Origin: Candidatus Omnitrophota bacterium
GTDB lineage: Bacteria > Omnitrophota > Omnitrophia > Omnitrophales > Aquincolibacteriaceae
Assembly (NCBI GenBank): GCA_022709525.1
Contig: JAKLIQ010000005.1
Coordinates: forward strand, 71,966-135,965
Length of the DNA: 64,000 bases
Reading direction: 5' to 3'
Every line of letters starts with the position of its first letter. Positions within the stretch are counted from its first letter, which is position 1. Made by a program: the position numbers and the translations under genes. Under the pieces are notes generated by a model. That model saw nothing but the letters and a program-made list of their open reading frames with translations, did not search any database and was not told the origin of the DNA. Positions 6,001-49,051 of this stretch are shown here, one piece after another.

Positions 6001-8860
6001 CTTCAAGAGCCTCGGCTCTTTGGTTGATTTCGCTCGCCTTCTGCGTTAACGGGATATCCTCGATATCTTTTTTTGTCTTTTGCGCTTCGCGAAAAATCGA
6101 GCGGGCTATGTCATCGATTTGTCGTTTTGCTTCGTTAGCCTTTTGCTTAATCTTCTGATTAGCTGCGTCTTCGAGTTTAGACAACATCTGAGATTTGATC
6201 TGGGAAAGAGCCTGGTACTGCCGATTCAGATCGTCATAATAAGCCCGGAGATTTGCAGCCGTTTTAAAATCCTCGATTTCGGGAAGTACAGCTTCTAATT
6301 TCGGAGCCATACTTTCATCGAATGTTTTTTTGATTGCGGTTAGCTTCTCCCAAAGCGCGCGGGGTGAAAGCGTCAACGGCAAAGCATTCATCAGGTTCTC
6401 TTGTTCCTGGCCCATCCGGACGATTTCTTCTCGTAACGATTTAAGGCGTTCCTGTATCGCATCCACTTTGGCTTTGACCTTATTTTCTTTCGCATTCGCT
6501 ATAAATTTTCGGATGCCCTGCGCAAGCTCATTTCCAAGCGCCGCCGGTCCTGCCTCTGCGGCACGCGCTAACGGAGTTTGGAGAGGGTCTTGCTTTACAG
6601 GAAGCGGAACTTCTTTGGATCCCTTTTGAGGTTCAGCGCGATTTTCAGGAGCGGGAGCTTCAGTTTTTGGAATTTCTCCCGTGTTTTTCGGAAGCGCTCT
6701 TGCTTCCTCCGGTTTTTTAAGATCCGTCTCATGAACTTTTTCACCTGTTTTTTCGGGAAGCTCGGAAGCCGTTTCCGGCTGCGTGATCTGGGAAGTCTCA
6801 AGCACGAATTTTCCGTCTTGGACTTTGACAGTGCCGCCCTTCAGAAGCTTTAAATTCATACCCTGAATAATGCCATCCTCACTCATCACCAGTTTCCCGG
6901 ATCGATCTTGGAACTGAAAAAGTCCCTTTTCCTGGCTGTATTCGGCTTGCATGTCCGGAAATTTCATCGACACCCGTCCGTCCGTATGAAAGCTAATCGT
7001 AAATGAAGCGGGAAGTTCGAAGCGGAATCCGAGCAAAAGGAAAGTTTGTCGCGATTCCAGGGTAGCATGAAGACCTGTTTGTGTCTCAAATTCCACAGCG
7101 CCATATGCGCTTGAACCTTCTACCTTGGTTTTTTGCGGAGTGACTGCCTTAAAAGTTCCTTTCGCCTCATCGTTTTCAATCGTGGTGCCGTGCGCAAATG
7201 TTATCCAAATGCCGTCTTTACGCTCAATGCGCGGTCTTTTATCGTCGGCCCTGACTTCCGAACGGTTCACGATACCGAAATCACTGGCGAGCGAATAAGC
7301 CGTCTTCGGTTGAGGCGGCTGATTTCCTTGGGAAACAAATTGGTTCCACCTTTGCAACATTTGAGCCAACAAAGAAACCTGTTGTTTAGGGCTTGTTTGA
7401 ACTTCCTTTTGATCTTTTTTGCCAAGAAACCGATCGATATCGAGGAATGAAATCAGATCCCGAATCCGTGAATCGAGATAGGCTCTTTGAGCGCGTTCAA
7501 GCTCTTGTCTTAACGCGGGATAAATGGGAGACCCTAAAGTCGCGGGCATTCTAAGGGCGGACTTTAATTTCTCGCGGAGCATGCGTTCGTATTCTTTGCC
7601 GGCATTTTTCTCGATCGCGGGGATGGCAGGTGAAATAAGCGCTCGCGATATACCTTTCGCTTCGAAAAGCTCCCCTAAATGCTTCGAGTGAAATCCGCCC
7701 GTGATAAGAACCGCTTTCTTCGGGTGCTTTTCTCTTAGAATTCGCTCGATATTTTTAATGAACGCATGATCTCTTTTTCCGGCGAGATCGTAGAACTTAA
7801 GAAAAACGTCCTTTTCCTTCTCAAGAAACGCTGCTGCTTTCTCAAGATTCCCAAAGAAATGATTTCCGCTGATCGTTTCAAGCTCAGCGGCGAGTTTTCC
7901 CGCGTCATACGAAGCCGGATTATTCCGAATCCCTTCAAACTCATCCGAAGTAAGCTCGAGTGAAAAAAGTTTTCTGAGCAGTCGAATGGTTTCACTGATC
8001 TGAAAGAGCCGCTTCGCGGGAGCGTCCGTTAAGAATTCACTTCTGACTTTGTTTTCAATTTCAGTAAGTTCCCGAAAAAATTTGCTCTGGTCGAAGCCGG
8101 AAGGGGCAATTCCTTTTTCAGGATTGGAAAGTTTGTTCCATTCTGCGAAGGAGGCAGTTTCGATTTTCTTTTTCTCGGCTCTGGTTCTTAATTGAAACAG
8201 ATATTGGAGGAGATCACCTTCGCCATCCTGCCAGCGCTCACGCATCCTTTCAAGTTCACGGAACTCGGCGGGGTACAGTTTCGCCTGGAGTGTTCTGATC
8301 TGGCCTTCGATTTGCGAAAGATTCTTTAAAGCAGCTTCTTTTCTTCTTAAAGCTTTTAAATAAACTTCCGCATTTTCACGATAAAGCGCTTCATCCTCGA
8401 TTCCAACGAGTTCCAGTGCGTAATCGCTTGCAAGCTGAAGGTATTCTTCTCCCGCGATCTTGCCCTGCCTTAAAAACCTCTCGGCGACATTACTGCGGAC
8501 GCTTTTGGCTGCGACCTTTCGAAGGGCCGTTAAGCTGACAGTTCCAGACCCTCCTTCGACCAAAACAAGCGATATGTTTTCTTTCCGGATCAGCGTCTCA
8601 AGGATCCGAGCCAGATTCGCCTGCGCGTCATAAACCGCGTGAGCATCCTGAATGTGATAGATCCATGGGGTTTTACCGTTTCCCCGGATTTGGATCTCAT
8701 CGACGCGGCCGATTTCCTGGGAGAGATAAGAAAGCGGTGGAAGTGTTGCGCTGGGAAGTCTCATTGCTCCCTGATTGGCAAAACCGGCATCTTGCACAAC
8801 CATAGTAAAAACGAGCAAAACCGCAATGACTTTTGTCCACAGAGAGGTCAAAATCTTCAT
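1..8860 (-). CDS. Giant secreted or membrane-anchored coiled-coil and HEAT-repeat protein. It is partial: at least 2,953 aa lie in the window and the C-terminus lies beyond position 1.
   Basis: I translated the minus strand by hand from ATG at 8860..8858 (MKILTSLWTKVIAVLLVFTMVVQDAGFA, signal-peptide-like) and met no stop codon through position 1. It is absent from the supplied ORF track because no stop occurs in the window. There are long E/K/L/Q-rich heptad-like stretches. A second hydrophobic segment (TMSFLLSIAFAFLVALGS) lies near nt ~650. HEAT/PBS-lyase-like repeats (RSIPVLLKYLEN...AAALALVQSG) lie near nt 1-300. Confidence 0.7.
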   Translation of the reverse strand, partial: MKILTSLWTKVIAVLLVFTMVVQDAGFANQGAMRLPSATLPPLSYLSQEIGRVDEIQIRGNGKTPWIYHIQDAHAVYDAQANLARILETLIRKENISLVLVEGGSGTVSLTALRKVAAKSVRSNVAERFLRQGKIAGEEYLQLASDYALELVGIEDEALYRENAEVYLKALRRKEAALKNLSQIEGQIRTLQAKLYPAEFRELERMRERWQDGEGDLLQYLFQLRTRAEKKKIETASFAEWNKLSNPEKGIAPSGFDQSKFFRELTEIENKVRSEFLTDAPAKRLFQISETIRLLRKLFSLELTSDEFEGIRNNPASYDAGKLAAELETISGNHFFGNLEKAAAFLEKEKDVFLKFYDLAGKRDHAFIKNIERILREKHPKKAVLITGGFHSKHLGELFEAKGISRALISPAIPAIEKNAGKEYERMLREKLKSALRMPATLGSPIYPALRQELERAQRAYLDSRIRDLISFLDIDRFLGKKDQKEVQTSPKQQVSLLAQMLQRWNQFVSQGNQPPQPKTAYSLASDFGIVNRSEVRADDKRPRIERKDGIWITFAHGTTIENDEAKGTFKAVTPQKTKVEGSSAYGAVEFETQTGLHATLESRQTFLLLGFRFELPASFTISFHTDGRVSMKFPDMQAEYSQEKGLFQFQDRSGKLVMSEDGIIQGMNLKLLKGGTVKVQDGKFVLETSQITQPETASELPEKTGEKVHETDLKKPEEARALPKNTGEIPKTEAPAPENRAEPQKGSKEVPLPVKQDPLQTPLARAAEAGPAALGNELAQGIRKFIANAKENKVKAKVDAIQERLKSLREEIVRMGQEQENLMNALPLTLSPRALWEKLTAIKKTFDESMAPKLEAVLPEIEDFKTAANLRAYYDDLNRQYQALSQIKSQMLSKLEDAANQKIKQKANEAKRQIDDIARSIFREAQKTKKDIEDIPLTQKASEINQRAEALEETLHQRISSYFVSIQETLEEFNFPELNFIFSDLTHEISGLERSILKHLEEGVPFAEKIPAFEEKASLPTSERSAAETQKTPELPAKSQISGASLEGMPAQPAELESHEPIGEIPAQETAVQQEKVSETPSLEPSRIAERTRIRLRKETIREVIQENENAFPVFSLKAFRKLLERSGKLNAYHERYGHYGLSDPTLRKDLTSLGLLNVKPGTQSPIGRRAYYFHPDSGFTKTLPADDAEKMNKLLEKGKEADQALDVGIPVREAPEKETVAPRAPEPPATKFSKDEEALTQRTEEMKTLLSRLRLRARELIGVIRSLEPAKDRLTKEMEGMRTLHDSIAASNQELARQRDDISAKLELLKSDFAAKSIDYSTLQTEFDALKKKLDELAQTKAGRDTEVEALESRVKDLTDQIASLEAQVKTKADQAQKDVRQYEERIGSLQNELAEKLELKRKAEREIEDRGKITDIAQDLQVLELQKNRLAQEIGLLEEELKSLTQVRDQIKKETEELLQALKSLGEQKNALHEEITQFKATRDELQRDTQQLKEELESLKNQSRTAHAAAHKARYLEFIRKLSFRAMAEDEEKLRELENALLRIDSEAGTETNPELARLKDEAHEALRLVQDSVTQDKNEKRKKADLAQKETDFLGALQTLTDLDRLDRFEEELSSLKTRFSGLDFDPLGDDIERVRSKVLEKETIRLDKERKMSSAENAFKALSERLRKLTGANEEGEISAIQAELEKMTSLYADLLEALHHPERELERGILDIRSKISEAKKLERNQKLMSAKQKFDSLLQEITQVSGSAEEMEIKLKEFQARFQALEPELKQFEEDLNVSVGKIRTEFFEATEKIEKARQRERAPPAETMQEKLKKILQERVSPGFWQHLSAVFHLSKSDIETQLLARLKEAGPDSPFARVIELIETHGSVSKGLEGDKQYAGFKDLLKRLGVNSGFDESGNSIPFSAAGENYNLVLSEGNAEDLIRGYLSGDCTNCALGAMPPVHPESPFNQYLTKHLLSPDFLNFRVINSRGAWVGNIYAFVARREGKPILFLEAFQLPWNGITHPDGMELPQNLRPDFMIPDQDVASQIMDEAVKRLVLYAGDHHFMEVWAGFVSNFYPLAGHFQRTYHDAYRGAVQPFRDQNYSGDPALSESGPDAYQEKQEALDFEFLSLFPDEIDSFNYRRGFARLWQYRVEPTSVRLDQEPDPRLAVLQHGQPEAMMRALQHYDKNPNELLASDEISTALYDLVVSRNPHVQQEAARLMGRFLSERGYPFYEKLRFFHHRDAEHWLMRGLGLGDWIDEIISYGDHDVDLNGISEDRTGLRSLLKFAVKSRVDDLKTEARKRLEAYLKSNREDAEKIRILHESAKRLGAPYARLIRELEANVREQLQNQFKRETAEDARQRKWDELSAFRERLQTNTLTDQDRNSPAFALDLEFLMHAGHGPIRQKAAEILLSLKGVKIAADVLLLLNGDYDYEQAVGPYKEAKTKGLAPEERPEIGLPIWQKAAALLLTPETISIFSDLYRASVNNALIDRNQLMQIAVTGNQEAQEMLRKISDLDVKMSLIRVRDMQKAIRGRDLGPELVVPFSKQLAVEFEHERKARELDEKEKLSKARAAEKLAKLDKDLTDMSELLRHALGRVAVKFPAEFVAKAEEVLSEKGLDSEVQTVFDDLLRENGSLAAFNVLLRAADHASPSERELRIRSIGRFLEDHKMPSELGSFLASLIQIKEGKRAAAVRNFTEKNKSKPYVHDLEKLHDYYMERTRQEKSRAGGGLLGRWFRGKTMSFLLSIAFAFLVALGSQSTAWAQSVPEEHVPTTQSKEEARKPKSVQGQSKKEEKKETPKKDIPKYQDSASAASREEEPKASENTGRSGVSSSSGAVTPKVAEATRPETFDALVKKLESTYWSPDRKQAIEALGNLKDKRSIPVLLKYLENREVNAAAALALVQSGYLTEADSPGKITDVLGVASSFNEALGKSAYMRFGAQAIPAIIRLSEMGDKQNT

Positions 8861-9201
8861 GCGGACCTCCACACGGCTTCAAGGCATTTGATTTCTCTTG
8901 AAAGAGGAAAAAATGCGAAATGATCAGACACTTTGCTCTGAATTCGTGCCGAATCTTTTTTGGTTTTGAGGAACGCACGGGCATTCTGAATGTGGTAAAC
9001 AACGAAAGATCCGGCTTTAAAGACCGGGGAGAAAATTTTCTCGACTTGGCCAAACCCGAAAAAAGACGGATAGACGGACTGCTCGACCGACGAGCCAAGA
9101 GAAGCGGGATTGGCCCACAGGATATCGGGAGAAAACAAGCTAACGATCAAAAAGAAGGAGAGAAAACGAAAACGTGATCTCACCCAGCCAAAAGCATTCA
9201 C
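8857..9201 (-). CDS. Small secreted protein, paralogous to the N-terminal ~100 aa of the giant protein.
   Basis: 114-aa ORF with an N-terminal signal-like hydrophobic segment. SVYPSFFGFGQVEKIF...VVYHIQNARAF aligns with giant-protein LSYLSQEIGRVDEIQI...WIYHIQDAHAV. Its stop overlaps the giant-gene start in an ATGA arrangement. Confidence 0.5.
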   Translation of the reverse strand: MNAFGWVRSRFRFLSFFLIVSLFSPDILWANPASLGSSVEQSVYPSFFGFGQVEKIFSPVFKAGSFVVYHIQNARAFLKTKKDSARIQSKVSDHFAFFPLSREIKCLEAVWRSA

Positions 9202-13348: not shown

Positions 13349-13846
13349 TTAGTTATCCTCCCACTGTTTATTTTTTAATTCTTCCTTAATCTCGCGAATA
13401 TCCTGAAGCAATTCTTCCGTTTCCGTGCGTTTAGCCTTTTCTTCGGCCTTACGGCGTTCGTAATCTTCCAGAAAACGAGCCCGAATTAGATCGTGAACGG
13501 CATTGCGGATTTGAACCATCCGAAAATTGGAAGAATTAAGAGTCGCGTGCGCTTCGCTTTCAAGAGCGGGTTTTGTGTGAATATTATTGGACTCCAAAAG
13601 CAAGAGAAGTTTTGGAGAAGGAACGATCTTGCGTTTTAAATCTAACAAGATTTCCGGGGAGAGATCCGGGTTATCGTCACCGTTTATGATAATAACATCG
13701 ACCTCTTCGCGTTTCCCGATTTCAACGGTTTCAGCAGCAGTCGCGGCCCGATAAACCAGATAGCCTTTCATGAACTTCGTAAAGATATTCTCGATACGAT
13801 TGCTAACCTCTCCCGTTTTATCAAACGTAAGAATTTTAAAAATCAT
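13349..13846 (-). CDS. Receiver-like domain protein with a coiled-coil C-terminal tail.
   Basis: 165 aa. DVIIINGDDNPD in a CheY-like fold context. K/E-rich C-terminus. Its start overlaps the upstream HK stop (ATGA). Confidence 0.5.
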   Translation of the reverse strand: MIFKILTFDKTGEVSNRIENIFTKFMKGYLVYRAATAAETVEIGKREEVDVIIINGDDNPDLSPEILLDLKRKIVPSPKLLLLLESNNIHTKPALESEAHATLNSSNFRMVQIRNAVHDLIRARFLEDYERRKAEEKAKRTETEELLQDIREIKEELKNKQWEDN

Positions 13847-16158
13847 TGCAGCTCTTCCTCGTCCTTCCAGATCGGAAGCTTGATGATAAACGTGGTGCCT
13901 TTGCCAACCTCGCTTTGAACCAAGATTTTCCCTTTATGCTGGCCTTCAATGATCGCTTTTACGTTATAAAGACCTTTTCCTTCCCCCTCAGAACCCTTGG
14001 TCGTAAATCCATAATCGAAAATCTTGGGAAGAACGTCAGGAGGAATTCCCTTCCCATTATCGGAAAATTCAACGCGAACCATGTCTTTATCATCAGGGTC
14101 AAGCATCGCACGAATTTCGATTTTCTTGGGAAAAATGCCGTCCATAGCATGAATGGAATTTTTGAAAAAGTTAATGAAAACGGCCTTTAAAAGTTCCGTG
14201 TGACCGCGAACCGAAGGAAGCTCGCGAGGAGCATCGACTTCAGGGGGATTCTCAAAACCTTGAGTTTTTACGCGATCTCCATACGTCCTGAGCATACCTA
14301 TCGTCACAATCCCTTTTAAAAAGGTTCTGATAGAAATGCGGCCCATTTTGGCGTATTTGCCCTTGCTGATCTCGGCCAAGGTGCGAGCCACATCATCAAT
14401 ATGCTGACTAGCCTGTTGAACGATGATAATGGCACCTAACGCTTCCTCAAGATTCTCAAAAAGCTCTCGCTTTTGACGAACAGGAACAGCATCGCCCGAC
14501 CTATACCATAGCTTCAAAGATTTACCGATATGGTCAAGTGCCGCTGCGACTTGATCGGCATTGTTGGTCAAACCATAGATGGAATTTTTGATTTCATGGT
14601 TAATACCGCCGGAAAGAGCAGAAACGGCGGCCTCCTCCTTCGCCTGAATGACTTCCGCTTGGGTTCTTTTCAATTCATCGTTCATTTGCTCAAGCTTTAT
14701 GTTTTGTTCGATGAGTTCGTCGTGCTTACGGGCATTTTCAAAAGCAATGGCGGATTCCAACGCAATCGTTTGAAAGAGGTTAATATCCTCCTCGTTATAA
14801 GTTTCATCGGATTTTTTTCCATCCAACACTAAAAGGCCCTGAAGCTTACCCTGATAAAAGCTGGGCACGATGAGATGTGCGCGAAGACGCTTCATGTCTT
14901 CCAACAGTTTTGGCAAATTATAAGAATACATGGCATTTTTCGCATACTTCGTTGCAGCTTCTTCTATCGACTGATATTCCAAATAGGTTTTTTTCTTCTC
15001 GGCTTTCAGATACAAAAGAATCGGCGAATCATATTCCAACTTCTTTATCTGATTAGTCATTTCTTCGGGACGGGATGCTTTTAAAATAAAATTGTTTTCG
15101 CCATTTTCGGGCATATAAATCGCGGCACCTTTGATCCTCGCCCTCAGTGTCAAGAAATGCACCACAAGGCGCAGTTGATGATTCAAACTGTTAATATCCG
15201 CTAAACCTTCACTGGCGATTTTTAATATTCTTCGATAATCAAATTTTTTCTGGAATAGATACTTGTCGGTGAGATTAAGAAGAAGCCGTTCCAATGGGCT
15301 AAAAATTAACGCCGTAGTTATAATCCCTAATAATAAAATAACAAAAGGAGAAGGAGCTCCAAAAACATTTCCTATAGCAACCTGAATTAGGGCAAAAGGA
15401 AAAGCAATTACAGAGACGGCGGCAGCTACTATTCCGGCAAACACTAAGGTCTTTTTTACAATAACTTCAACGTCAATAAATTGATAACGAATCACAGCGT
15501 AAAAAGTAACGCAAACAAAAAAGAAAACGCCCCAAATTCCATAAGGAAATGGAAATAGCTCGATATTATAAACTGGTAAAAAGCAACCAATCCCGCCAAG
15601 ATAACCTAAGGAATTGGCTATTATAAAAAATAATAATTTTTTCTTTTCACCGCCAATCCGCATTCTCGCTTCTAAAAACAATACGGAAAGCGTAAGCATA
15701 ACAAGCAGTACAAATAATGCCGTCCACAAATAAAACAAAGGTCCTGCATTGGGGAAAAAGTGGAAAGTGAATTTTGGAACAACATCCGATATAAATAATT
15801 GGGGTTTTATTAAAATAGAAGCTGATATTATTCCCGCTATAAAATAGGAAATTATTATTACACGCCGCAGCCATTGTTTTTTGCTGTTAATTAAAACGTA
15901 GGAAAAATGCAGAAAAGCAACGGGGATAAATACACCTATAAAATGGCATATCCTTGCTAGCTGATATGAAAGCTCGTGATCTGACACATAAGTGCATGCA
16001 AAAACAAAAAAACTCCAGTGCGCTATGCAGAAAGCATACCAAATAAAATGATGTGCCAACTTTCGATTAGGTGAGTTTCTAAAAACAAATATCGCAAATA
16101 CAAATGCTGTTACAGCAGTAACTAATGCGGATGTGAAATAGTGTTGAGCTGGCGTCAA
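13843..16158 (-). CDS. Multi-transmembrane sensor histidine kinase (N-terminal ~300-aa polytopic membrane domain, GAF-like region, HisKA, HATPase_c).
   Basis: 771 aa. Many hydrophobic helices at the N-terminus. H-box GGINHEIKNSIYGL. C-terminal G-boxes DNGKGIP and GSEGEGKGLYNVK...GKGTTF. The N-terminal membrane part is markedly AT-rich. Confidence 0.85.
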   Translation of the reverse strand: MTPAQHYFTSALVTAVTAFVFAIFVFRNSPNRKLAHHFIWYAFCIAHWSFFVFACTYVSDHELSYQLARICHFIGVFIPVAFLHFSYVLINSKKQWLRRVIIISYFIAGIISASILIKPQLFISDVVPKFTFHFFPNAGPLFYLWTALFVLLVMLTLSVLFLEARMRIGGEKKKLLFFIIANSLGYLGGIGCFLPVYNIELFPFPYGIWGVFFFVCVTFYAVIRYQFIDVEVIVKKTLVFAGIVAAAVSVIAFPFALIQVAIGNVFGAPSPFVILLLGIITTALIFSPLERLLLNLTDKYLFQKKFDYRRILKIASEGLADINSLNHQLRLVVHFLTLRARIKGAAIYMPENGENNFILKASRPEEMTNQIKKLEYDSPILLYLKAEKKKTYLEYQSIEEAATKYAKNAMYSYNLPKLLEDMKRLRAHLIVPSFYQGKLQGLLVLDGKKSDETYNEEDINLFQTIALESAIAFENARKHDELIEQNIKLEQMNDELKRTQAEVIQAKEEAAVSALSGGINHEIKNSIYGLTNNADQVAAALDHIGKSLKLWYRSGDAVPVRQKRELFENLEEALGAIIIVQQASQHIDDVARTLAEISKGKYAKMGRISIRTFLKGIVTIGMLRTYGDRVKTQGFENPPEVDAPRELPSVRGHTELLKAVFINFFKNSIHAMDGIFPKKIEIRAMLDPDDKDMVRVEFSDNGKGIPPDVLPKIFDYGFTTKGSEGEGKGLYNVKAIIEGQHKGKILVQSEVGKGTTFIIKLPIWKDEEELQ

Positions 16159-16162
16159 TTTC

Positions 16163-17152
16163 TTAATTCCTCGCGAAGCAATATTGCATAATTTTTAAAG
16201 GCTCATACTTTAAGTTAAGACTCGAAGATATAAACCCTGCACTCTCAAATATCTTCAAAAACTCTTGTTCGGTTCTATAAACCAACTCCCAGTCCCCTCC
16301 CCATTCCATGAAATGTCTTGCGGGGTTACTCCATTTATCCCGATAATTTGAAATGATCAATAAACCGTTAGGAACTAAAAGTTTTTTAAGATTGGCCACC
16401 AACCGAGTCGATATTTTTTCATCCAAGTAGTCAAAAAGTCCTGTGGAAAATATTAAATGATATTTTTCCGAAAAATACCCTTCAATGTTTTTAGTTAAAG
16501 CTAATTTAATAACATTTTTTTGAAGAAAACATATTTGTTTATTAAAAGTCTTTGTTTTCAGTTTGGACTTTGAATGTTCGATAGCATTTATATCGTGATC
16601 CAAGCAATCCATTAAAACATTCCCCCCTAATTCTTTTGCTTGGTCATAGAACTCGATAATATCAGTACATGGACCTGATGCCAGATCCAAAATTCGAATC
16701 TTGCGTTTTAAAGCATTCTCTTTAGAAAAATCCATTAAAAATTGCTTAAAGTCTTCTTTTCGATTTCTCGTTGCTACGGAAGCTGATGCTTTTAAAAAGT
16801 AGTTGTCCATACATCGTTCAATTCCAGTAGTGTTGGGGGAATTTTTATAAATCTCATCAATAATCATAAAATCGCCATGATACCCATACGGTTTATCAAT
16901 TACATGACGATTGTATTTTCCTAAGCGTATAAGGTCTCGGCAATGCTGGATGAACAAGTGCTTCATTTCATATACTTTACTTTCGTTTGATTCATTATTT
17001 TTCTCAAAATTCGAAAGCCAGTCAAAAACTTCATCAAGAATACTATCTATGTCTTTTTGAGCGTTTTGCCAACCATTAGGCTGAATTTCTAATTCTTTTT
17101 TAACTTTTTCTATTTTCCCTTTATACATCTGAATCATCTCGGAGATATTCAT
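16163..17152 (-). CDS. Class I SAM-dependent methyltransferase with a ~140-aa helical N-terminal domain.
   Basis: 329 aa. Motif I ILDLASGPCTD. Post-I acidic DCLDHD. Motif LIISNY. Not CheR-like (no AxSxGCSTGEE). Very AT-rich gene (~33% GC). Confidence 0.7.
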   Translation of the reverse strand: MNISEMIQMYKGKIEKVKKELEIQPNGWQNAQKDIDSILDEVFDWLSNFEKNNESNESKVYEMKHLFIQHCRDLIRLGKYNRHVIDKPYGYHGDFMIIDEIYKNSPNTTGIERCMDNYFLKASASVATRNRKEDFKQFLMDFSKENALKRKIRILDLASGPCTDIIEFYDQAKELGGNVLMDCLDHDINAIEHSKSKLKTKTFNKQICFLQKNVIKLALTKNIEGYFSEKYHLIFSTGLFDYLDEKISTRLVANLKKLLVPNGLLIISNYRDKWSNPARHFMEWGGDWELVYRTEQEFLKIFESAGFISSSLNLKYEPLKIMQYCFARN

Positions 17153-17156
17153 TAAA

Positions 17157-17552
17157 TTACTTCTTTCTTTTTTCTATGAGAGCATTTTTCACGGCCAAAA
17201 GAAGCTCTTGTATATCGAAAGGCTTCATAATATAGGCGTACGGCATAAGAGCTTTTGCTTCTTTTTCTTTTAGTTCATCTGCAAATCCAGTAATAAAAAT
17301 CGTTGGGATGTTTTCCATTTTTTTTCTTAAAAAGATTTCTCTTAATTTTAAGACGGTTTCAACCCCATCAAGTCCCGGCATTCTAATATCGGATATTATT
17401 AAATCGAAATTTTCTTCTTCCGCCATTTCACAGGCATCTTGTCCTTTCTTAGCAATAAAAACATCGTACCCGGTTTTTTCCAAAACCCTCGAAAAAGTTT
17501 TTGTTAATAATTCTTCATCATCAATCACAAGTATTTTTTTCTTGTCGTCCAT
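17157..17552 (-). CDS. Single-domain CheY-like response regulator.
   Basis: 131 aa. KKILVIDDEE...LIISDIRMPGLDG...IFITGF...IMKPF. AT-rich. Confidence 0.85.
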   Translation of the reverse strand: MDDKKKILVIDDEELLTKTFSRVLEKTGYDVFIAKKGQDACEMAEEENFDLIISDIRMPGLDGVETVLKLREIFLRKKMENIPTIFITGFADELKEKEAKALMPYAYIMKPFDIQELLLAVKNALIEKRKK

Positions 17553-17576
17553 TCTGGCATCTCTCCATTTATAAAA

Positions 17577-18272
17577 TTAACCGCCTTTTTTCGAATCTCC
17601 CGTTAGGGCTTCTTGAATTTTTTCCATTACCACCGTATCAAGATATTCTAAGTTCAACGGTTTTGTAATGTAATCACTTGCACCCAACTCCTTGGCTTTA
17701 TCAATAACAGGTTGATCCACAACCGCCGTAACCATAATGACCTTTATCTCAGGATTGTACTTTTTTATTTCCTGTAAAACCTGCACGCCATCACGCATCC
17801 CACCGCTTGACAGACGAACATCCAGAAGAACAATATTGGGATTGTATTCGCGTAGGATCTCAAGGGCTTTTTCGCCGGAATCGGCTGTGTAGGACTCATA
17901 ACCCTTGTCGCTAAAATAATCACCGAGAAATTCGATAATCTCGGCTTCATCATCAACACAAAGCAGCTTGATTTGTTTTACTTCTTTTTTACTTTTTTCT
18001 TCCATCGGTCGGTTCCCCATCTGTTGGATTTGAGATTCTGGTAAATTTTTTTGCAAAAACTTTACGACATCGCCGACCTTATGCATTCGTTCCACCGCTT
18101 CATCTGAAATCTCGCGGCCAAATGCTTCCTCAAGGGCGATTACGAGTTCTACTGTATCAAGACTCTCTGCCCCTAAGTCTTTTACAAATCGAGATTCTAA
18201 TTTCACTTCCTCGATTGGTAGTTTCAACAAATCGGCTACAATTCGTCGTACCTTTTCTGCAATGTCATCCAT
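17577..18272 (-). CDS. Fusion protein: N-terminal acyl carrier protein domain plus C-terminal receiver (REC) domain.
   Basis: 231 aa. Residues 1-77 ([30 protein letters not shown]) align near-identically with the E. coli AcpP core ([30 protein letters not shown]), including the phosphopantetheine Ser. Residues ~105-225 are a complete REC domain ([10 protein letters not shown]...VLLDVRL...MVTA...ITKP). Confidence 0.8.
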   Translation of the reverse strand: [231 protein letters not shown]

Positions 18273-18348
18273 TCCGGCCGAATGGTCCTTTCTTGCTCTT
18301 ATTCTTACTGCATAATACCCTTCTGTAGTGCTCTCTACGTGTTAAATT

Positions 18349-19137
18349 TTAGTTCTTCAAAAGCAAAGCCCAGCGCCGCATCGAGTTGATAATGGTCGTT
18401 AAATCAAAAGGTTTGCTCAAAACCTCATGAGCGCCAACCGAAAGAAAACGATGATGCGCATCTGGATCGCCAGTCATTCCAACAAAGATTTTAATCGAAG
18501 GATAACTGCCTAAGCGTATTTTTTTAATTAGTTCATCACCTTGCATTTGCGACATCGTTAAATCGGTACAAACAATGTCCGGCCTAAATGATGATATTTG
18601 AATTAGTGCCTCTCCGGGAGAATAGGCAACCTGAGCTTGAAATCCTTCTTCCTCGGCTATATGCTGCATAAAATCACAAATATCATCTTCCTCGCCCACG
18701 AACAATATGCGTGCTTTAAGATCAGGTTTTTCTCTGGTTTTTAAGGCATCAAATTCTTCTCGCGACAATTCAAGTTCCGCGCAAATGACCTTATCGAGTT
18801 CGTGCATTCCTCTTGAGTCTTTTTCAACAACACGAACCTTGAGAGCATCAACCTCCGCGTGATAAGTGTCTAAATACCCTGTAACTACAACCACACGAAT
18901 ATCCGGCATGATCTCTCGCATCTTTTTGATGACTTCGATACCATTCATCTGCGGCATATCCAGATCAATGCAGGCAACGCTTGGGCGATGGCTTTTCACA
19001 AATTCGATTGATGCAAGAGGGTCTTGAGTAGCAAAAGTCATAAACCCACGCCGTTTTAAGGCTTTCTGGAGAACGGCAAGAATTACGGCATCATCGTCCA
19101 CAAGTAGTGCGGAGTAAGCTATTTCTTTTTTATCCAT
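18349..19137 (-). CDS. Response regulator with two tandem receiver domains (paralog of 12550..13344).
   Basis: 262 aa. LLVDDDAVIL...CIDLDMP...VVVTGY and ILFVGEEDD...CTDLTM...SKP. Confidence 0.8.
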   Translation of the reverse strand: MDKKEIAYSALLVDDDAVILAVLQKALKRRGFMTFATQDPLASIEFVKSHRPSVACIDLDMPQMNGIEVIKKMREIMPDIRVVVVTGYLDTYHAEVDALKVRVVEKDSRGMHELDKVICAELELSREEFDALKTREKPDLKARILFVGEEDDICDFMQHIAEEEGFQAQVAYSPGEALIQISSFRPDIVCTDLTMSQMQGDELIKKIRLGSYPSIKIFVGMTGDPDAHHRFLSVGAHEVLSKPFDLTTIINSMRRWALLLKN

Positions 19138-19170
19138 TTACCGTATCCGGCTTTAATTGATGTTGATTTC

Positions 19171-19491
19171 TTATTTCAACCGCCAAAATGGCCCGATTTT
19201 CCATAAAACAAGAACGCTTGCAATGCATGCAATTATACCTATGACCAAAAGTATTGTAGTCACTTTTAATGCTATTTTGGGTAAACCTTTTTCAGTCTTT
19301 GGCTCCTTAGGTAAAAGAAATTCTGCGCCAATAAATAATGCTAAGAATATTAACGGAGCTGCTGCGTAACTCGGTGGGTAAAAGGTCAATGTAAGAATGA
19401 GAAATAGTGCCGCTAAGACAATCAACGAACGCACAATGATTTTCTCTATAGACATACTTCTCCCCCAAAATTGACCTTTTAAGCCTTTCAT
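19171..19491 (-). CDS. Small integral membrane protein (3 predicted TM helices).
   Basis: 106 aa with three hydrophobic stretches. It is the first gene of the minus-strand signalling operon, downstream of an AT-rich 380-bp spacer. Confidence 0.45.
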   Translation of the reverse strand: MKGLKGQFWGRSMSIEKIIVRSLIVLAALFLILTLTFYPPSYAAAPLIFLALFIGAEFLLPKEPKTEKGLPKIALKVTTILLVIGIIACIASVLVLWKIGPFWRLK

Positions 19492-19868
19492 TATTTATCG
19501 GAACTTTCGGCTCTATCTACAGTTAAATCCTCGCATCTATGCGGTTTCTTAATCTCACCGCCTCCTTTGATACCTAATCAAAAAGATCGCCGATCGTCTT
19601 AAGGAAAAATTTTGCAGTTTGCGGCTCATAGAAAACAAGGCGATCCACCCACTCCAGAAGACGAATTCTCGCGAAACCTTTTCAGCAATATGCAGCAAAA
19701 AATATGTTCTTTTTTTATTTTAAAATAAGAAAATTTTATAAGTAAGGCTTGCCATCGGCAAACGGGCAATGCTTCATAAAGTTACTCTTTGAAATTTTTG
19801 ACTTTCCCAGAGCTCCTAGAAAAATAAGAGAAAATTTATAAATTAAGAACACCTTGCACGGTTGATTA

Positions 19869-20489
19869 CTATTTTTTTCCTTGGAATTTACCCATAAAAA
19901 GAAGCTGTCGGATTCGTTCTTTCGACAGTCCCATCTGATACGCTACAGCTTGCAAGGTTCCTAATGTGGTATATAAATTCTTTGCTGAGCGAATTTTCTT
20001 TTTTGTTTCATTGGATATTTCTTTTCGATTTGAGCCGCCTCCAGCGGGCTGCTGACCAGAATAGTGCAGAGATCCTGTGTGGGCGATCAACTTCCATTCT
20101 CTAGTCGGCATCTTTGTGTAAATCTTACAAACCCGTCCTTTCCAGTGGAGGTCTTTCCCTGTTTTTTTATGCTGCCAAAGCGTGTCAATATCTACGACTG
20201 CATAAGCTCCGTCGCCTTCCTGGCTGATTTCAATTTTTATTGTATTTCTCCTATTATGAATTAAGTTGTAGCCGTCAAAGATATCCTGCCAGTTCTTTCG
20301 CCAACGCTTGTAATTAAAACGCCCTAATTCAAAAACCCAATGGACAGGATTGTGAGCATTTTGATGCGGAGGCCAAGGCCAAACCATATCTGGGTGAATA
20401 ATGGAAAGAAATAAATCGGGGTTTTTGGTATTCCATCCCCTTGTTTCGAGATCCACCATCGCTTGGATTTGAGCCTTAATGTTTTTCAT
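19869..20489 (-). CDS. Fusion of an NTF2-like/SnoaL-like (DUF4440-type) domain with a C-terminal sigma-70 region-4-like helix-turn-helix.
   Basis: 206 aa. The N-terminal 150 aa have a SnoaL/NTF2-like pattern. The C-terminal LYTTLGTLQAVAYQMGLSKERIRQLLFMG resembles the sigma-70 r4 TLEEVGKQFGVTRERIRQIE. The start overlaps the upstream gene by 4 bp. Confidence 0.5.
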   Translation of the reverse strand: MKNIKAQIQAMVDLETRGWNTKNPDLFLSIIHPDMVWPWPPHQNAHNPVHWVFELGRFNYKRWRKNWQDIFDGYNLIHNRRNTIKIEISQEGDGAYAVVDIDTLWQHKKTGKDLHWKGRVCKIYTKMPTREWKLIAHTGSLHYSGQQPAGGGSNRKEISNETKKKIRSAKNLYTTLGTLQAVAYQMGLSKERIRQLLFMGKFQGKK

Positions 20490-23836: not shown

Positions 23837-25528
23837 ATGGAGCAGGAAAAGTTCATACAGCCCGGTTTGCGGGTTCTCCTCATTGAGGATGACCAGGAAT
23901 TCGCGGATGTTCTCAGCATGCGTCTGGATCAGGAGAAAAACCCCTCGTTCGAAGTAACCCGCCTTACGACCCTGAAGCAAGCCCTGGAAGCCCTCGGACA
24001 AAACTCCTGGGACCTCATCCTTTTGGACCTGATGCTCCCCGACTCTTCCGGGATCGAAACTTTCGCAAACGTTCACGCGAAGGCCCGCCACACTCCCGTC
24101 GTGATCGTAAGCGGCCTGGACAGCGACAGCCTCGCGATCGATGCCGTCCGGAAAGGCGCCGAGGATTACCTGGTCAAGGGCGAGATCGACTCCAGGCTGC
24201 TTCTTCGCGTCCTCCACCACGCCATTGACCGGCACCGCATCAAGGAAAAACTGGCCTCTGTTACCGGCCGCCTTCATGAGACCAATCGCCGCTTGGAAAA
24301 AATGGCCCTTCTGGACCCGTTGACCGAGCTTTATAACCGCCGAGGGCTCCAGCAGGTCCTCAAGCGCGAGATCCAGCTCATCGCCCGCGAAGGCGGCAAC
24401 CTCATGGTGCTGCTCCTGGATCTTGACGACCTGAAGAAGATCAACGATTCCCTGGGCCATCCCGTGGGCGATATTCTTTTGAAGGAAACGGCCAGGAAAA
24501 TACGCGATTCGGTGCGCGGCTCAGACCACGTCGCGAGGATCGGCGGAGATGAGTTCATTCTTCTCCTGCCAAAAACATCCGTCAAAGAAGGCCTCCAGCT
24601 GGCCGAGCGGCTTCGCTCCTCGATCGCCAATACCACGATCACCGTCTCCGAAAAAAGGACGATCAAGATCACGGCAAGCTTCGGGCTTGTTTCTGTCCCG
24701 GACCATGTGACTTCCGTGGACGAGCTTTTGGCGGTTTCGGACCCTTTTTTAAGGCAAAGCAAAAATGAAGGAAAAAACAAGGTCTCCTACCAGCATCCCG
24801 AAGAAACGCGGAACGGTCCGCGGCCGCCCGAAGCCGAACATGTGGCCGAGCTTTTACGGAACGGACGGGACTTCTTTGCTCTGAAACAACCGATCTTCCG
24901 CCTCGCCGACCAGACCGTCGTAGGCTACGAATTCCTCTCCCGCTTGAAAAATAGCGGTATCCATATGCCGGATGTTTTTTTCAGGATCGCGATGGAAAAT
25001 AACATCCTGACACTCGTGGATCATCACTGTTTCCGTTCTTGCGTCGCGGCCGCGGCAACGCTTCCGCCCAAGATCCGCCGCCACATCAACCTTTTCCCGA
25101 CAACGATCATCGCCCTGGCGACCGAAGAGCTTGTGGAGAAACTGGCAACGACCTGTCCCGCCGAGAACTACTGTTTTGAGATCAGCGAACAACAGATCCT
25201 GGGCGACCCGTCCCACTTAATCGGCCCCGTGGAACAATTCAGGCGCTATGGCATTTCGATCGCGATCGACGACGTGGGTTTCGGGAACACCTGCCTCGAG
25301 GGCCTGATCCTCCTTGAGCCCGACGTGATCAAACTCGATAAAAAATATGTCCGGGGGATCGCGCAGGATATCCACATCGAACGCTCGCTGCGGCGGACCC
25401 TCAAGGTCGCCGAAGACCTGAATGCCGAGGTCATCGCCGAAGGCATTGAAACGGAGGAGGATCTCGAGCGCCTTAAAGAGCTGGGGGTAAAGTACGGGCA
25501 AGGATTTTACCTCGGGATGCCCGCGTGA
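23837..25528 (+). CDS. Response regulator with REC, GGDEF and EAL domains (c-di-GMP turnover).
   Basis: 563 aa. REC (LRVLLIEDDQ...LILLDLMLP). GGDEF with an RxxD I-site (RGSDHVARIGGDEF). An EAL-type domain with E-F-L-S-R, DDVGFG, EGIETEE, KLDK and QGFYLG motifs. Confidence 0.85.
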   Translation: MEQEKFIQPGLRVLLIEDDQEFADVLSMRLDQEKNPSFEVTRLTTLKQALEALGQNSWDLILLDLMLPDSSGIETFANVHAKARHTPVVIVSGLDSDSLAIDAVRKGAEDYLVKGEIDSRLLLRVLHHAIDRHRIKEKLASVTGRLHETNRRLEKMALLDPLTELYNRRGLQQVLKREIQLIAREGGNLMVLLLDLDDLKKINDSLGHPVGDILLKETARKIRDSVRGSDHVARIGGDEFILLLPKTSVKEGLQLAERLRSSIANTTITVSEKRTIKITASFGLVSVPDHVTSVDELLAVSDPFLRQSKNEGKNKVSYQHPEETRNGPRPPEAEHVAELLRNGRDFFALKQPIFRLADQTVVGYEFLSRLKNSGIHMPDVFFRIAMENNILTLVDHHCFRSCVAAAATLPPKIRRHINLFPTTIIALATEELVEKLATTCPAENYCFEISEQQILGDPSHLIGPVEQFRRYGISIAIDDVGFGNTCLEGLILLEPDVIKLDKKYVRGIAQDIHIERSLRRTLKVAEDLNAEVIAEGIETEEDLERLKELGVKYGQGFYLGMPA

Positions 25529-27816
25529 CCGCTCACGAACCGGAAAAGACCCATAAAGCCCCGCCGAAGGCAAGGCGGGACCCTATCCTTTCTGCCACCA
25601 ATCTGAAATTTCTTTTTGCCTTCATCTTCCTTTGCTGCTCCGCGGTCGGGAACTTCCTTATCATGAACCACCAGATCCGTTACGCGTCGCGGGACGCGGC
25701 GATCACGGGCTTTATGGAAAGCCAGTACAGTCTTGTCCAGAAAACCGCTTACCTGGCGACTGCCTACGCGCAGTCGATCGATTTTGCGGACCGCAAAACG
25801 TTCCGCGCCAACATCCGGGACGAATCGCGGTTGATCCTTCTTTTCAACACGACCTCCAACGACATTATTTCCGAAAAAACCCACCTTCCGAGGGAGTTGA
25901 TCCCGACGCTCCGGCGGCTTTATTTTTACTCCTCCCCTCCCTTGAACCAGGAAGTGGACGAATATTTTTCCGCTTTAAAAAAATTCCTGATGGGCTCCCC
26001 GATCCGCGTTAGCTCCGACAATCCCTATCTTCTCGCCTTCCAGGCGAAGAACGCGAAACTTCTTAGTTTTTTCCGCGCCGCGATCAAGACATTCCAGAAA
26101 GAGAGCAGCGGAAAGATCACGATGCTCAAATACCTCGGAACAGGCCTTTTCTTTCTTAACATCTTCTGTCTTGCGATAATCGGTATGCTTGTCTTCCTCC
26201 CGACGCTCAAGCGGCTCGGGATCTATCTGCAGCAGTTGAAGAACATGAATGAGGCCCTCGAGGTCAAGGTGCGCGAAAGGACGGCCGAGCTGGAACATAA
26301 GACCCAGCAGCTCGTGCTCATCAACGAGGAACTGCGCGCCCATATCGACGAACGGATCCGGGCAGAAAAAGAGCTCCGCCAGACCAACACCTTCCTTGAT
26401 TCCATCATCGAAAATATCCCGAACATGATCTTCATGAAGGACGCCGAAGAGTTGAAATTTGTCCGTTTTAACCGTTCTGGTGAGGATTTGGTGGGCTATA
26501 AGCGGGAAGAGCTTCTCGGAAAAAACGATTACGCCTTTTTCCCAAAAGAAGAAGCTGATTTTTTTATCCAGCAGGACAAAAACGCTTTGGCGGGCAGAAC
26601 GACCATTGAGATCGCCGAAGAATCCATTCACACGAAGCAAAAAGGCGTCCGGATCCTGCATACCAAAAAGATCCCCGTCCTGGACCACGACGGAAAACCC
26701 GTTTACCTTCTTGGCATCTCCGAGGACATCACCGAGAAGATCCGTTCCGAACAACAACTGCGGGAACTTTCCATGGCGATGGAACACGCCCTGGACGGTA
26801 TCGCCCGTCTGGACGCGAACGAGAAATTCTTAAGCGTCAACAAATCCTACGCGGCCATGATGGGCTACACTCCCCAGGAAATGATGGGGTTGAATTTCAG
26901 CGCCACGGTCTGTCCCGAAGACGCGGACAAGGCCGAGGCCGCCTTCGAGATGATGAAAGAAACAGGCAAATCCGAGGTGGAGCTTAAGGTCTTCCAAAAA
27001 GATAGCTCCGTTTTTTACCAGTATGTGGTCATGGTGCGGACCCTGGATGCGGCCAAGAACTTTGACGGATTTTATTGTTTTTCCAAAGATATCACTGAGC
27101 GTAAATACCAGGAATCCATCGAGATCAAGGCAGACCTTATCCAGATGGTCTCCCACGAGCTCCGCACCCCGATCCATTCCGTGAAGGAAGGCCTGAGCAT
27201 CGTGCTGGAAGGCCTGACTGGCGAGATCACGGAAGAGCAGAGGGACGTCCTGAGCATTTCCAAACGTTGCATCGACCGGCTGGTGCGGCTCGTGAACGAC
27301 GTGCTCGCTTTCCATAAACTTGAGGCCGGGGTCATCGAGTTCAATATGGAGCCGGGAGATATCAACCAGCTTCTTGAGGAGGTGGGCGATACGATGCTGC
27401 CCCTCGCGGAAGATAAAAAACTTTCGATGAGGCTTGAGCTTGAAAAAAACCTGCCCCCGGTAACCTTTGACCGGGACAAGATCTTTCAGGTCCTTACGAA
27501 TTTCATCCAGAATGCCATCAAGTTCACCTCCCAGGGATCCATCACGCTTGTCTCGTCGCGGATCGATCATGGCGTGAAGATCTCGGTGCGGGATACGGGG
27601 GTGGGGATCCAGCAACAGGACCTTCCGAAACTTTTCAGGAAATTCGGCCAGCTTGAATCGGCCAAACTTCTCGCGCCGGGAGGCACGGGGCTGGGGCTTG
27701 CGATCTCAAAAAAACTTGTGGAGTGCCATCACGGAAAGATCGAGGTGGAATCGGAATATAAAAAGGGAAGCTCTTTTTCCTTTATCCTTCCTTTGGAGCA
27801 ACCAAAACCGGCTTGA
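25525..27816 (+). CDS. Membrane sensor histidine kinase (2 TM, coiled coil, two PAS domains, HisKA, HATPase_c).
   Basis: 763 aa. GTG start overlapping the upstream stop. H-box VSHELRTPIHSV. G-boxes RDTGVGI and GGTGLGLAISKKLVECHHGKIEVESEYKKGSSF. Confidence 0.85.
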   Translation: MTAHEPEKTHKAPPKARRDPILSATNLKFLFAFIFLCCSAVGNFLIMNHQIRYASRDAAITGFMESQYSLVQKTAYLATAYAQSIDFADRKTFRANIRDESRLILLFNTTSNDIISEKTHLPRELIPTLRRLYFYSSPPLNQEVDEYFSALKKFLMGSPIRVSSDNPYLLAFQAKNAKLLSFFRAAIKTFQKESSGKITMLKYLGTGLFFLNIFCLAIIGMLVFLPTLKRLGIYLQQLKNMNEALEVKVRERTAELEHKTQQLVLINEELRAHIDERIRAEKELRQTNTFLDSIIENIPNMIFMKDAEELKFVRFNRSGEDLVGYKREELLGKNDYAFFPKEEADFFIQQDKNALAGRTTIEIAEESIHTKQKGVRILHTKKIPVLDHDGKPVYLLGISEDITEKIRSEQQLRELSMAMEHALDGIARLDANEKFLSVNKSYAAMMGYTPQEMMGLNFSATVCPEDADKAEAAFEMMKETGKSEVELKVFQKDSSVFYQYVVMVRTLDAAKNFDGFYCFSKDITERKYQESIEIKADLIQMVSHELRTPIHSVKEGLSIVLEGLTGEITEEQRDVLSISKRCIDRLVRLVNDVLAFHKLEAGVIEFNMEPGDINQLLEEVGDTMLPLAEDKKLSMRLELEKNLPPVTFDRDKIFQVLTNFIQNAIKFTSQGSITLVSSRIDHGVKISVRDTGVGIQQQDLPKLFRKFGQLESAKLLAPGGTGLGLAISKKLVECHHGKIEVESEYKKGSSFSFILPLEQPKPA

Positions 27817-45868: not shown

Positions 45869-45871
45869 TCC

Positions 45872-47053: not shown

Positions 47054-47068
47054 CGGGTGTGTACAGGG

Positions 47069-48274: not shown

Positions 48275-48319
48275 TTTTTTGATAGCCCCTCCAGGATGCG
48301 AACAGAGAGGGATTTTACC

Positions 48320-49048: not shown

Positions 49049-49051
49049 GGA

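Follow-up and report, generated by a model that had tools for sequence, protein, structure and literature searches.

Several response regulators, among them CheB, PleD, and RpfG, have enzymatic outputs. The assembly of fatty acids and polyketides in bacteria is regulated by transcription factors, by feedback from acyl-acyl carrier protein (acyl-ACP), and, in mycobacteria, by Ser/Thr kinases. The attachment of receiver (REC) domains to standard metabolic enzymes is an established general principle (PMC5847659). In the DSF system of Xanthomonas, the receiver domain of RpfC binds directly to RpfF, the DSF synthase, which uses acyl-ACP substrates (as summarized in PMC4504480 from its references 24 and 25). 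The phcBSRQ operon of Ralstonia encodes a lipid-methylating enzyme, which yields a fatty-acid methyl ester signal, together with a kinase and receivers that lack DNA-binding domains (PMC8578825).

Here we describe a bifunctional protein of a Candidatus Omnitrophota bacterium that consists of an AcpP-like acyl carrier, a flexible linker, and a Spo0F/CheY-like receiver. As in the described REC proteins with enzymatic or metabolic outputs (PMC5847659), the receiver is covalently tied to an effector that does not bind DNA, an arrangement that would place metabolism under a kinase; unlike in those proteins, the partner is a noncatalytic carrier and lies N terminal to the REC. The ACP-REC protein extends the known principle of a REC attached to a metabolic protein to a carrier protein. 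Its operon resembles the DSF system (RpfC, RpfG, and RpfF) in that a membrane kinase and receivers are coupled to acyl-ACP-linked chemistry, a resemblance in logic only, and a distantly related locus, L019, pairs a 7TM kinase, a ketosynthase (KS), and a methyltransferase with REC-HD-GYP-type regulators like RpfG. The operon differs from the DSF system in that its kinase is not a hybrid kinase and the lipid-handling part is the ACP itself; no RpfF-type crotonase/ECH domain was found by Pfam in any operon protein. With the Phc system it shares a SAM methyltransferase, a sensor kinase, and DNA-binding-free receivers in one operon, a likeness in operon logic only, whereas phcBSRQ contains no ACP or KS gene and its kinase has a different architecture.

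Results

An acyl carrier and a receiver are encoded in one reading frame

The window, by which we mean the whole 64,000-nucleotide stretch of DNA that was analyzed, contains the fusion gene and the operon features listed in Table 1. When the fusion protein was compared with Pfam at the gathering scores, PP-binding matched residues 6 to 73 (E value of 7e-12; 45.9 bits versus a cutoff of 20.8) and Response_reg matched residues 104 to 213 (87.8 bits versus a cutoff of 30.2). The N-terminal half also exceeded the cutoff of NCBIfam TIGR00517 (acyl_carrier), which is an equivalog-level model with a cutoff of 70.45 bits, identifying the domain as an AcpP-type ACP rather than a generic carrier domain. 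AlphaFold2, run with a 95-sequence alignment, predicted a helical ACP bundle (residues 2 to 76), a disordered linker (82 to 98), and a (beta-alpha)5 REC (102 to 224), with a pTM of 0.56 and no confident or fixed interface or packing between ACP and REC. As modeled, ACP-REC is two independently folded domains on a flexible tether. Searches of the PDB by sequence and by fold yielded matches that each span a single half of the protein, the best of them being ACPs of fatty acid synthesis (FAS) and Spo0F.

Table 1. Features of the ACP-REC operon and fusion gene (positions within the window)
Feature	Position	Strand	Evidence or remark
Gene 1, small membrane protein, 2 to 3 hydrophobic segments	19171..19491	minus	Probable first operon gene; no Pfam family
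Gene 2, REC-REC, 262 aa	18349..19137	minus	Pfam, two REC stretches
Shine-Dalgarno-like sequence AAGAAAGGA	18286..18294	minus	Upstream of ACP ATG; conserved in 3/3 fused genes
Gene 3, ACP-REC fusion, 231 aa	17577..18272	minus	Intact ORF, ATG start; both domains above curated cutoffs (Pfam, NCBIfam); between REC-REC 262 aa and REC131
AcpP-type acyl carrier domain, aa 1 to 77	18042..18272	minus	TIGR00517, 83.5 bits; Ser37 codon 18162-18164
Linker, aa 78 to 101	17970..18041	minus	Junction comparison with split genes of L001, L003, and L173
Former REC start ATG (M90)	18003-18005		Preceded by RBS-like GGGGAA
REC domain, aa 102 to 224	17601..17969	minus	Pfam Response_reg, E value of 7e-25; D151 codon 17820-17822
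Gene 4, REC131, single-domain REC, 131 aa	17157..17552	minus	Pfam; full D-D-D-T-K set
Gene 5, class I SAM-dependent methyltransferase (MT329), 329 aa	16163..17152	minus	Pfam Methyltransf_31/20/23
Gene 6, sensor histidine kinase, 771 aa	13843..16158	minus	Pfam HisKA_7TM membrane domain, GAF, HATPase_c
Gene 7, pseudo-receiver plus coiled coil, 165 aa	13349..13846	minus	hhalign versus REC profile, probability of 96.3%
Gene 8, REC-REC, 264 aa	12550..13344	minus	Pfam; last operon gene

The ACP domain is 55 to 62% identical to housekeeping bacterial AcpPs. Its Ser37 aligns with Ser36 of AcpP, the phosphopantetheine Ser, and the HMM match supports this alignment. Ser37, within an E-S-L motif, is invariant among six aligned ACPs of the conserved gene cluster described below. 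The modeled helices (residues 2 to 15, 41 to 51, 57 to 62, and 66 to 76; pLDDT of 72 to 89) form a four-helix bundle. The domain thus has the (D/E)-S-L Ser, the acidic recognition helix II, and the four-helix fold of AcpP (TIGR00517; PF00550), and the recognition helix together with the level of identity implies compatibility with AcpS and the FAS enzymes. It differs from AcpP in carrying E-S-L where the housekeeping form has D-S-L, in a helix III-IV signature common only to cluster ACPs, and in being joined to a receiver in a two-component operon, whereas the housekeeping form is a free protein of ∼78 aa encoded in a fab operon. The neighbors of the window ACP are two-component genes and a methyltransferase gene in place of the fab genes that would surround a free-standing ∼78-aa ACP. 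Its fusion to a REC amid two-component genes marks it as an AcpP-like domain and not as the housekeeping AcpP itself. No second, housekeeping ACP occurs within the window, and no PPTase domain was found among the window ORFs scanned with Pfam, which are a part of all window ORFs.

In the receiver, residues D107/D108, D151, T182, and K204 align with D12/D13, D57, T87, and K109 of CheY and are invariant among 11 orthologs. The REC model (pLDDT of ∼90) had Spo0F as its best Foldseek match (TM of 0.94; rmsd of 1.2), and Spo0F was also the best solved match by sequence in the PDB. Like the Spo0F/CheY-type single-domain receivers (PF00072), the domain combines a full D-D-D-T-K set with the (beta-alpha)5 fold, and its orthologs in sister lineages are free single-domain RECs of 136 to 144 aa. 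Unlike those receivers, it bears an N-terminal ACP and a three-residue insertion in the beta3-alpha3 loop (relative to MPNMDG). No Hpt or Spo0B-like partner was recognized in the window operon.

Judged by their residues and folds, both domains appear fully competent. The profile matches and aligned residues bear out the original prediction, made from the sequence alone, that the N-terminal 77 aa are an ACP with a phosphopantetheine Ser and that a complete REC with its conserved residues follows on the same polypeptide. One detail is corrected: the motif around the Ser, given as D-S-L, is E-S-L in 3/3 fused genes.

The fusion is real and arose from adjacent genes

A frameshift might have joined two separate genes artificially, or the ACP might be a decaying remnant in front of a normal REC gene. 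Such an explanation would agree with the NCBI PGAP annotation of contig DAOOSW010000002.1 (GCA_035389965.1, a Candidatus Omnitrophota MAG), in which the sole product given for this locus is a 142-aa response regulator that begins at M90 and the 343 nt upstream, which encode the ACP, carry no annotation. However, fused genes with the same neighbors were found in L007 (SRR27710297; 94% aa identity) and in L008/L009 (SRR30949866/65; 83% aa identity). With dS values of 0.45 to 0.94 among the fused genes, the continuous frame is preserved, and it is identical in three independent assemblies that have many synonymous differences. Both halves are under strong purifying selection (dN/dS of ∼0.1), with values of 0.04 to 0.12 for the ACP and 0.065 to 0.074 for the REC; the linker has values of 0.15 to 0.47. 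The ACP part moreover retains Ser37, scores above the cutoff of the AcpP equivalog model, is folded confidently by AlphaFold2, and starts from a conserved RBS and ATG of its own. The same frame in diverged genes from other samples, combined with the low dN/dS of the ACP, excludes a frameshift, an assembly artifact, or a decaying remnant; we rejected this explanation, which we regard as having a negligible chance of being correct. The original claim of a single-polypeptide fusion stands, with neither a frameshift nor a stop between the domains.

Because no stop codon separates the domains, translation from Met1 must give the fusion protein, and internal initiation at Met90 may additionally supply free REC. 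Public annotation here omits the ACP domain entirely, and automated start-site choice can conceal such fusions.

The nearest nonfused homologs of the REC are free proteins of 136 to 144 aa with 55 to 66% identity, and in L001/L002, L003/L004, and L173 a separate ACP gene (∼79 to 83 aa) lies directly upstream of the REC gene. At the L001/L002 junction, the ACP stop overlaps the REC start by 4 nt (ATGA); at the L003/L004 junction, the genes are separated by a 14-nt spacer, TAAaggaaatccgaccgATG; and at the L173 junction, there is a 13-nt gap as called, with an overlapping ATG being more probable. Comparison with these junctions shows that the linker derives from what were once the 3' end of the ACP gene, the spacer between the genes, and the 5' end of the REC gene. 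Its sequence, ...SQIQQ(M/T)GNRPMEE..., runs colinearly with the N terminus of the L001 REC (MTGSQPME), as it does with the L003 region that spans spacer, RBS, and start. At Met90, each of the three fused genes retains CCGACCG-ATG, preceded by GGGGAA or AGGAAA. Within the linker, residues 82 to 98 have an AlphaFold2 pLDDT below 50. From the colinear linker, the persisting RBS and ATG, and the split genes of sister lineages, we infer stop loss by a small indel: on this gene comparison, the fusion is a young, lineage-specific joining of two adjacent, translationally coupled genes (ACP and then REC), in which the inter-gene stop codon was removed in one shallow Omnitrophota clade.

The covalent link could be functionally neutral, with the domains working as they do in the split systems and initiation at M90 still giving free REC. 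A neutral link would fit with the confinement of the fusion to one shallow clade with at least 83% identity, with sister lineages that manage with separate genes, with a linker that is long, disordered, and less constrained than the domains, and with conservation of the former RBS-like sequence and ATG in every fused gene. However, the frame has been held over a dS of ∼0.9 with no reversion, a distant protein (P0124, described below) also has an ACP covalently linked to a REC, and REC-KS fusions recur in the cluster, a repetition that argues for an advantage of proximity. We consider neutrality unlikely. It concerns the added value of the covalent link only and is compatible with the ACP-REC partnership itself.

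The ACP-REC architecture is very rare

When 1.84 billion representatives were searched exhaustively with phmmer, P0124 was the only protein among the best 150 matches that aligned over both domains; those 150 were mostly multi-REC proteins. A search of 5.8 billion proteins returned only P0001 and P0002, which are close relatives, with the ACP-REC architecture. A profile search with the ACP only found free ACPs only, the longer matches being over-extended start calls, and a search with the ACP-REC segment of P0124 found no further fusions. When GTDB genomes and metagenomes were scanned with a profile of the REC orthologs, there were no new ACP-REC loci among the matches listed, which contained only distant RECs of at most 53% identity; L019 was the sole informative by-product. 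The architecture, which had been flagged as unfamiliar, is very rare by these counts (P0124 and two close relatives). Across other genomes, the same ACP-REC architecture is present in L007 and L008/L009, and another arrangement is present in P0124.

A full-text literature search found no ACP-REC fusion, no REC-KS fusion, and no cluster of this kind. The census papers on response regulators that were consulted mention no ACP or PP-binding output and no REC-KS fusion, and none of the literature searched describes a two-component receiver that directly controls a ketosynthase or a carrier protein.

The fusion gene is part of a tight two-component operon

As originally proposed, the fusion gene sits in a tight two-component operon that encodes a histidine kinase and RECs and whose genes lie −4 to 76 nt apart. 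Its proteins contain six REC domains in total, plus one pseudo-receiver, and the ACP is the sole non-REC domain joined to any of these RECs. Pfam found no DNA-binding domain on any operon protein and no ketosynthase, acyltransferase, thioesterase, or PPTase in the window operon.

The small membrane protein, which is encoded by the probable first gene, has conserved counterparts ahead of the cluster in L001 (95 aa) and L007 (94 aa). In the 262-aa REC-REC protein, which is 66 to 76% identical to its L001 ortholog, the conserved Lys is missing from the N-terminal REC and the acid pocket of the C-terminal REC is degenerate (G-E-D-V-K). The 264-aa REC-REC protein (67% identical to its L001 ortholog) has a C-terminal REC with the full D-D-D-T-K set. 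REC131 groups by BLAST with REC126 of L003, with REC121 of L005, whose gene adjoins a KS gene, and with the REC part of the REC-KS fusion in L001; by this similarity, it belongs to the REC subfamily of the KS-linked RECs of relatives.

The methyltransferase MT329 has an ortholog in L003 (389 bits) and a more distant one, encoded beside KS genes, in L019 (66 bits). Searched by sequence, the PDB gave a generic SAM-methyltransferase match only (E value of 0.004), and the single-sequence AlphaFold2 model (pLDDT of 42) was too low in confidence for use. The sensor kinase has hydrophobic segments and an H-box with His521 (GGINHEIKN), and its orthologs were found in every cluster variant. The pseudo-receiver has Asn at the phospho-acceptor position and no Pfam match, and it is encoded directly downstream of the kinase also in L001, L003, L005, L173, and L174.

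Screening with PADLOC for a known anti-phage defense system gave only weak generic REC or methyltransferase-domain matches of at most 35 bits, and this assignment was rejected. No RNA family was found by Rfam across the whole window, and promoter and terminator scans detected sites no more frequently than in shuffled sequence.

Relatives carry a cluster with a constant core and variable enzymes

Eight lineages, all recovered from metagenomes or MAGs, share the cluster, with a constant core and varying enzymes; an ACP is present in 8/8 lineages seen. In the window, L007, and L008, ACP and REC are fused, and in the window these are followed by a REC and a methyltransferase (the L007 and L008 contigs stop before that point). 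L003 encodes ACP, REC, REC, and methyltransferase as separate genes. ACP and REC are accompanied by a REC-KS fusion in L001, along with an ICMT-type methyltransferase, and in L173, along with an SRPBCC protein. L005 and L174 encode REC, REC, KS, ACP, and a hot-dog thioesterase. A minimal type II FAS/PKS module (KS plus ACP) is not present in the window operon, which lacks a KS; KSs are present in the relatives.

In L010-L012, the cluster encodes a kinase of the same kind and, next to it, P0124, a single 499-aa protein with the arrangement REC-pseudoREC-ACP-REC. The window protein and P0124 share ∼35% identity, and the ACP-linked REC of P0124 is nearest to the window REC subfamily. The two linkers are unrelated, and P0124 therefore probably arose by a separate fusion.

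The REC-fused ketosynthases are FabF-like and keep the acyl-accepting Cys, and in both L001 and L173 the first catalytic His is replaced by Tyr (EAYGNAT; Cys-Tyr-His). Owing to this replacement, they may perform no condensation at all. The free-standing cluster KSs of L005 and L174 keep Cys-His-His. The methyltransferases of the different cluster variants are not orthologous, which suggests that there is perhaps no single common product. L019, a more distant PVC-group MAG, links a 7TM kinase and two REC-HD-GYP-type regulators of the window REC subfamily to a homolog of the window methyltransferase, a KS, and a KS-like partner. The repeated independent fusions within one cluster (ACP-REC, REC-KS, and REC-pseudoREC-ACP-REC) provide Rosetta-stone-type evidence that the receivers physically partner with ACP and KS.

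Discussion

The fusion, set in an operon with a lipid-type enzyme and without any DNA-binding output, suggests that this system acts directly on lipid-building proteins and not on genes. We tentatively propose, with somewhat less than even confidence, that a phosphorelay under the 7TM-GAF kinase targets proteins directly, namely, a dedicated AcpP paralog and its partner enzymes, leading to a small fatty-acid-derived product. According to this proposal, the housekeeping AcpS would phosphopantetheinylate the ACP at Ser37, and the ACP would then hold an acyl intermediate. The kinase, through His521, would phosphorylate the attached REC at D151, either directly or via other RECs; its role as the actual phosphodonor is suggested by the shared operon. 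The phosphorylation state would gate the carrier or recruit the Ser37-bound acyl group to partner enzymes, for example, by REC-REC pairing. Candidate partners are the methyltransferase in the window and the KS, thioesterase, or SRPBCC proteins in relatives. The outcome would be protein-level control of a small fatty-acid-derived product, such as a methyl ester, another lipid signal, or a membrane-lipid modification, and the fusion would merely hard-wire an ACP-REC partnership already present in the split versions. In this scheme, we infer that the Ser is phosphopantetheinylated and that phosphotransfer takes place, as well as which way control runs and what is made. Several observations speak against the proposal. 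The window operon lacks a KS, an acyltransferase, a thioesterase, and a PPTase that would indicate what the ACP carries and where it delivers its cargo; the REC-fused KSs of relatives may not condense; the methyltransferases of the cluster variants are not orthologous; the model shows no confident contact between ACP and REC; and with the internal RBS and ATG conserved, free REC may still be produced and the fusion could be neutral.

Control could also run in the opposite direction, with the ACP serving as a sensor input. Its apo, holo, or acyl state, equilibrated via FabD and FAS, would then modulate phosphorylation or dephosphorylation of the tethered REC, and the phosphorelay would merge the status of fatty acid synthesis with the signal that the 7TM kinase detects at the membrane. 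SpoT of E. coli, which senses acyl-ACP, is a precedent. The ACP is near-housekeeping (55 to 62% identical to AcpPs) and should be loaded by the general FAS enzymes; it lies N terminal to the REC, the usual place of input domains; the window operon is without a condensing or releasing enzyme; and the REC-fused KS of relatives, with its Cys kept and its first His lost, could be a reader of acyl-ACP and not a synthase. Against these points, the type II variants L005 and L174 carry a biosynthetic set (Cys-His-His KS, ACP, and hot-dog thioesterase), the presence of a methyltransferase in the operon points to the making of a product, and our literature search found no ACP-regulated REC phosphorylation. 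We judge sensing by the ACP, and with it the merging of the two signals, to be unlikely. The original prediction had offered both a carrier under phosphorylation control and acyl loading as a signal input; the gene context favors the former.

If receivers do physically partner with ACP and KS, the consequences would reach beyond the window protein. The wider cluster would then constitute a new class of output in two-component signaling and would point to an unknown lipid-derived product or signal in the Omnitrophota, a phylum on which there is almost no experimental biology. It is possible, though doubtful, that the cluster represents an undescribed class of two-component systems with FAS-type proteins in place of transcription factors as outputs. 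Its receivers, fused or translationally coupled to an ACP and to ketosynthases, would let the phosphorelay directly switch acyl-chain chemistry on a dedicated carrier, with a product that is perhaps a lipid signal sensed by the system's own 7TM kinase in a self-contained autoinducer loop.

The fusion gene is truncated in public annotation

The counterpart of the ACP-REC fusion gene at NCBI lies in DAOOSW010000002.1 (GCA_035389965.1), where the public gene call comprises only a 142-aa response regulator that starts at internal Met90; the ACP domain lies in frame (343 nt) and carries no annotation there. Elsewhere in the same two-component operon, the conserved pseudo-receiver protein matched no Pfam family. 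Its gene is always found immediately 3′ of the kinase gene, which it overlaps.

Coordinates of the features discussed, in the window or in the loci named
Feature	Location	Strand	Description
ACP-REC fusion gene	window 17577-18272	-	231 aa
Pseudo-receiver with C-terminal coiled coil	window 13349-13846	-	165 aa, conserved; Asn at phospho-acceptor position
REC-ketosynthase (KS) fusions	L001 8514-10202; L173 4927-6618		562-563 aa; FabF-like KS
P0124	L010 6807-8306; also in L011 and L012		REC-pseudoREC-ACP-REC, 499 aa
Lipid-enzyme and kinase locus	L019 1-11062		PVC group MAG Gpa_23, JAAEQR010000072.1
Giant open frame	window 2-8878	-	at least 2,959 aa, continuing beyond window start
Signaling pair	window 23837-27816	+	REC-GGDEF-EAL, then PAS-PAS-HisKA-HATPase kinase
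Biotin-type operon	window 44519-50074	-	FAS-type genes embedded

Related fusions and gene associations

In two related clusters with separate ACP and REC genes (L001 and L173), REC is fused to a ketosynthase whose active-site Cys and second His are intact, while the first catalytic His is replaced by Tyr (EAYGNAT). Free-standing ketosynthases of sister clusters, unlike these REC-fused ones, retain Cys-His-His. A second, distant ACP-REC fusion is P0124, whose gene lies beside those for a HisKA_7TM-GAF kinase, a PP-loop protein resembling QueC, and an NAD-binding-like protein of 539 aa. The more distant locus L019 encodes a CLF-like KS fragment, a Cys-His-His KS, a homolog of the window methyltransferase, and an unannotated 197-aa open reading frame, followed by a HisKA_7TM kinase and, farther downstream, two REC-HD-GYP-type regulators. 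L019 is a related association of lipid enzymes and a kinase, with c-di-GMP-type output.

Other loci in the window

The product of the giant open frame has a signal peptide-like N terminus (MKILTSLWTKVIAVLLVFTMVVQDAGFA) and is probably a secreted or surface protein. The signaling pair is separate from the fusion operon. The biotin-type operon encodes a BioB-like radical SAM protein with a BATS domain, BioF-like and BioA-like aminotransferases, a FabG-like SDR, and a 401-aa FabF/B-type ketosynthase with Cys-His-His; it may be a dedicated route for pimelate-arm synthesis.

Base composition and mobility of the cluster

The operon core (window 15000-20000) is clearly AT-richer than its surroundings, with a GC content of 0.34 to 0.43 versus 0.44 to 0.52 in the flanks. 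Just upstream of the related clusters lie five tandem tyrosine-recombinase genes (L005, likewise with separate ACP and REC genes) and a DNA methylase and helicase pair (L001). The cluster may be located in variable or mobile regions.
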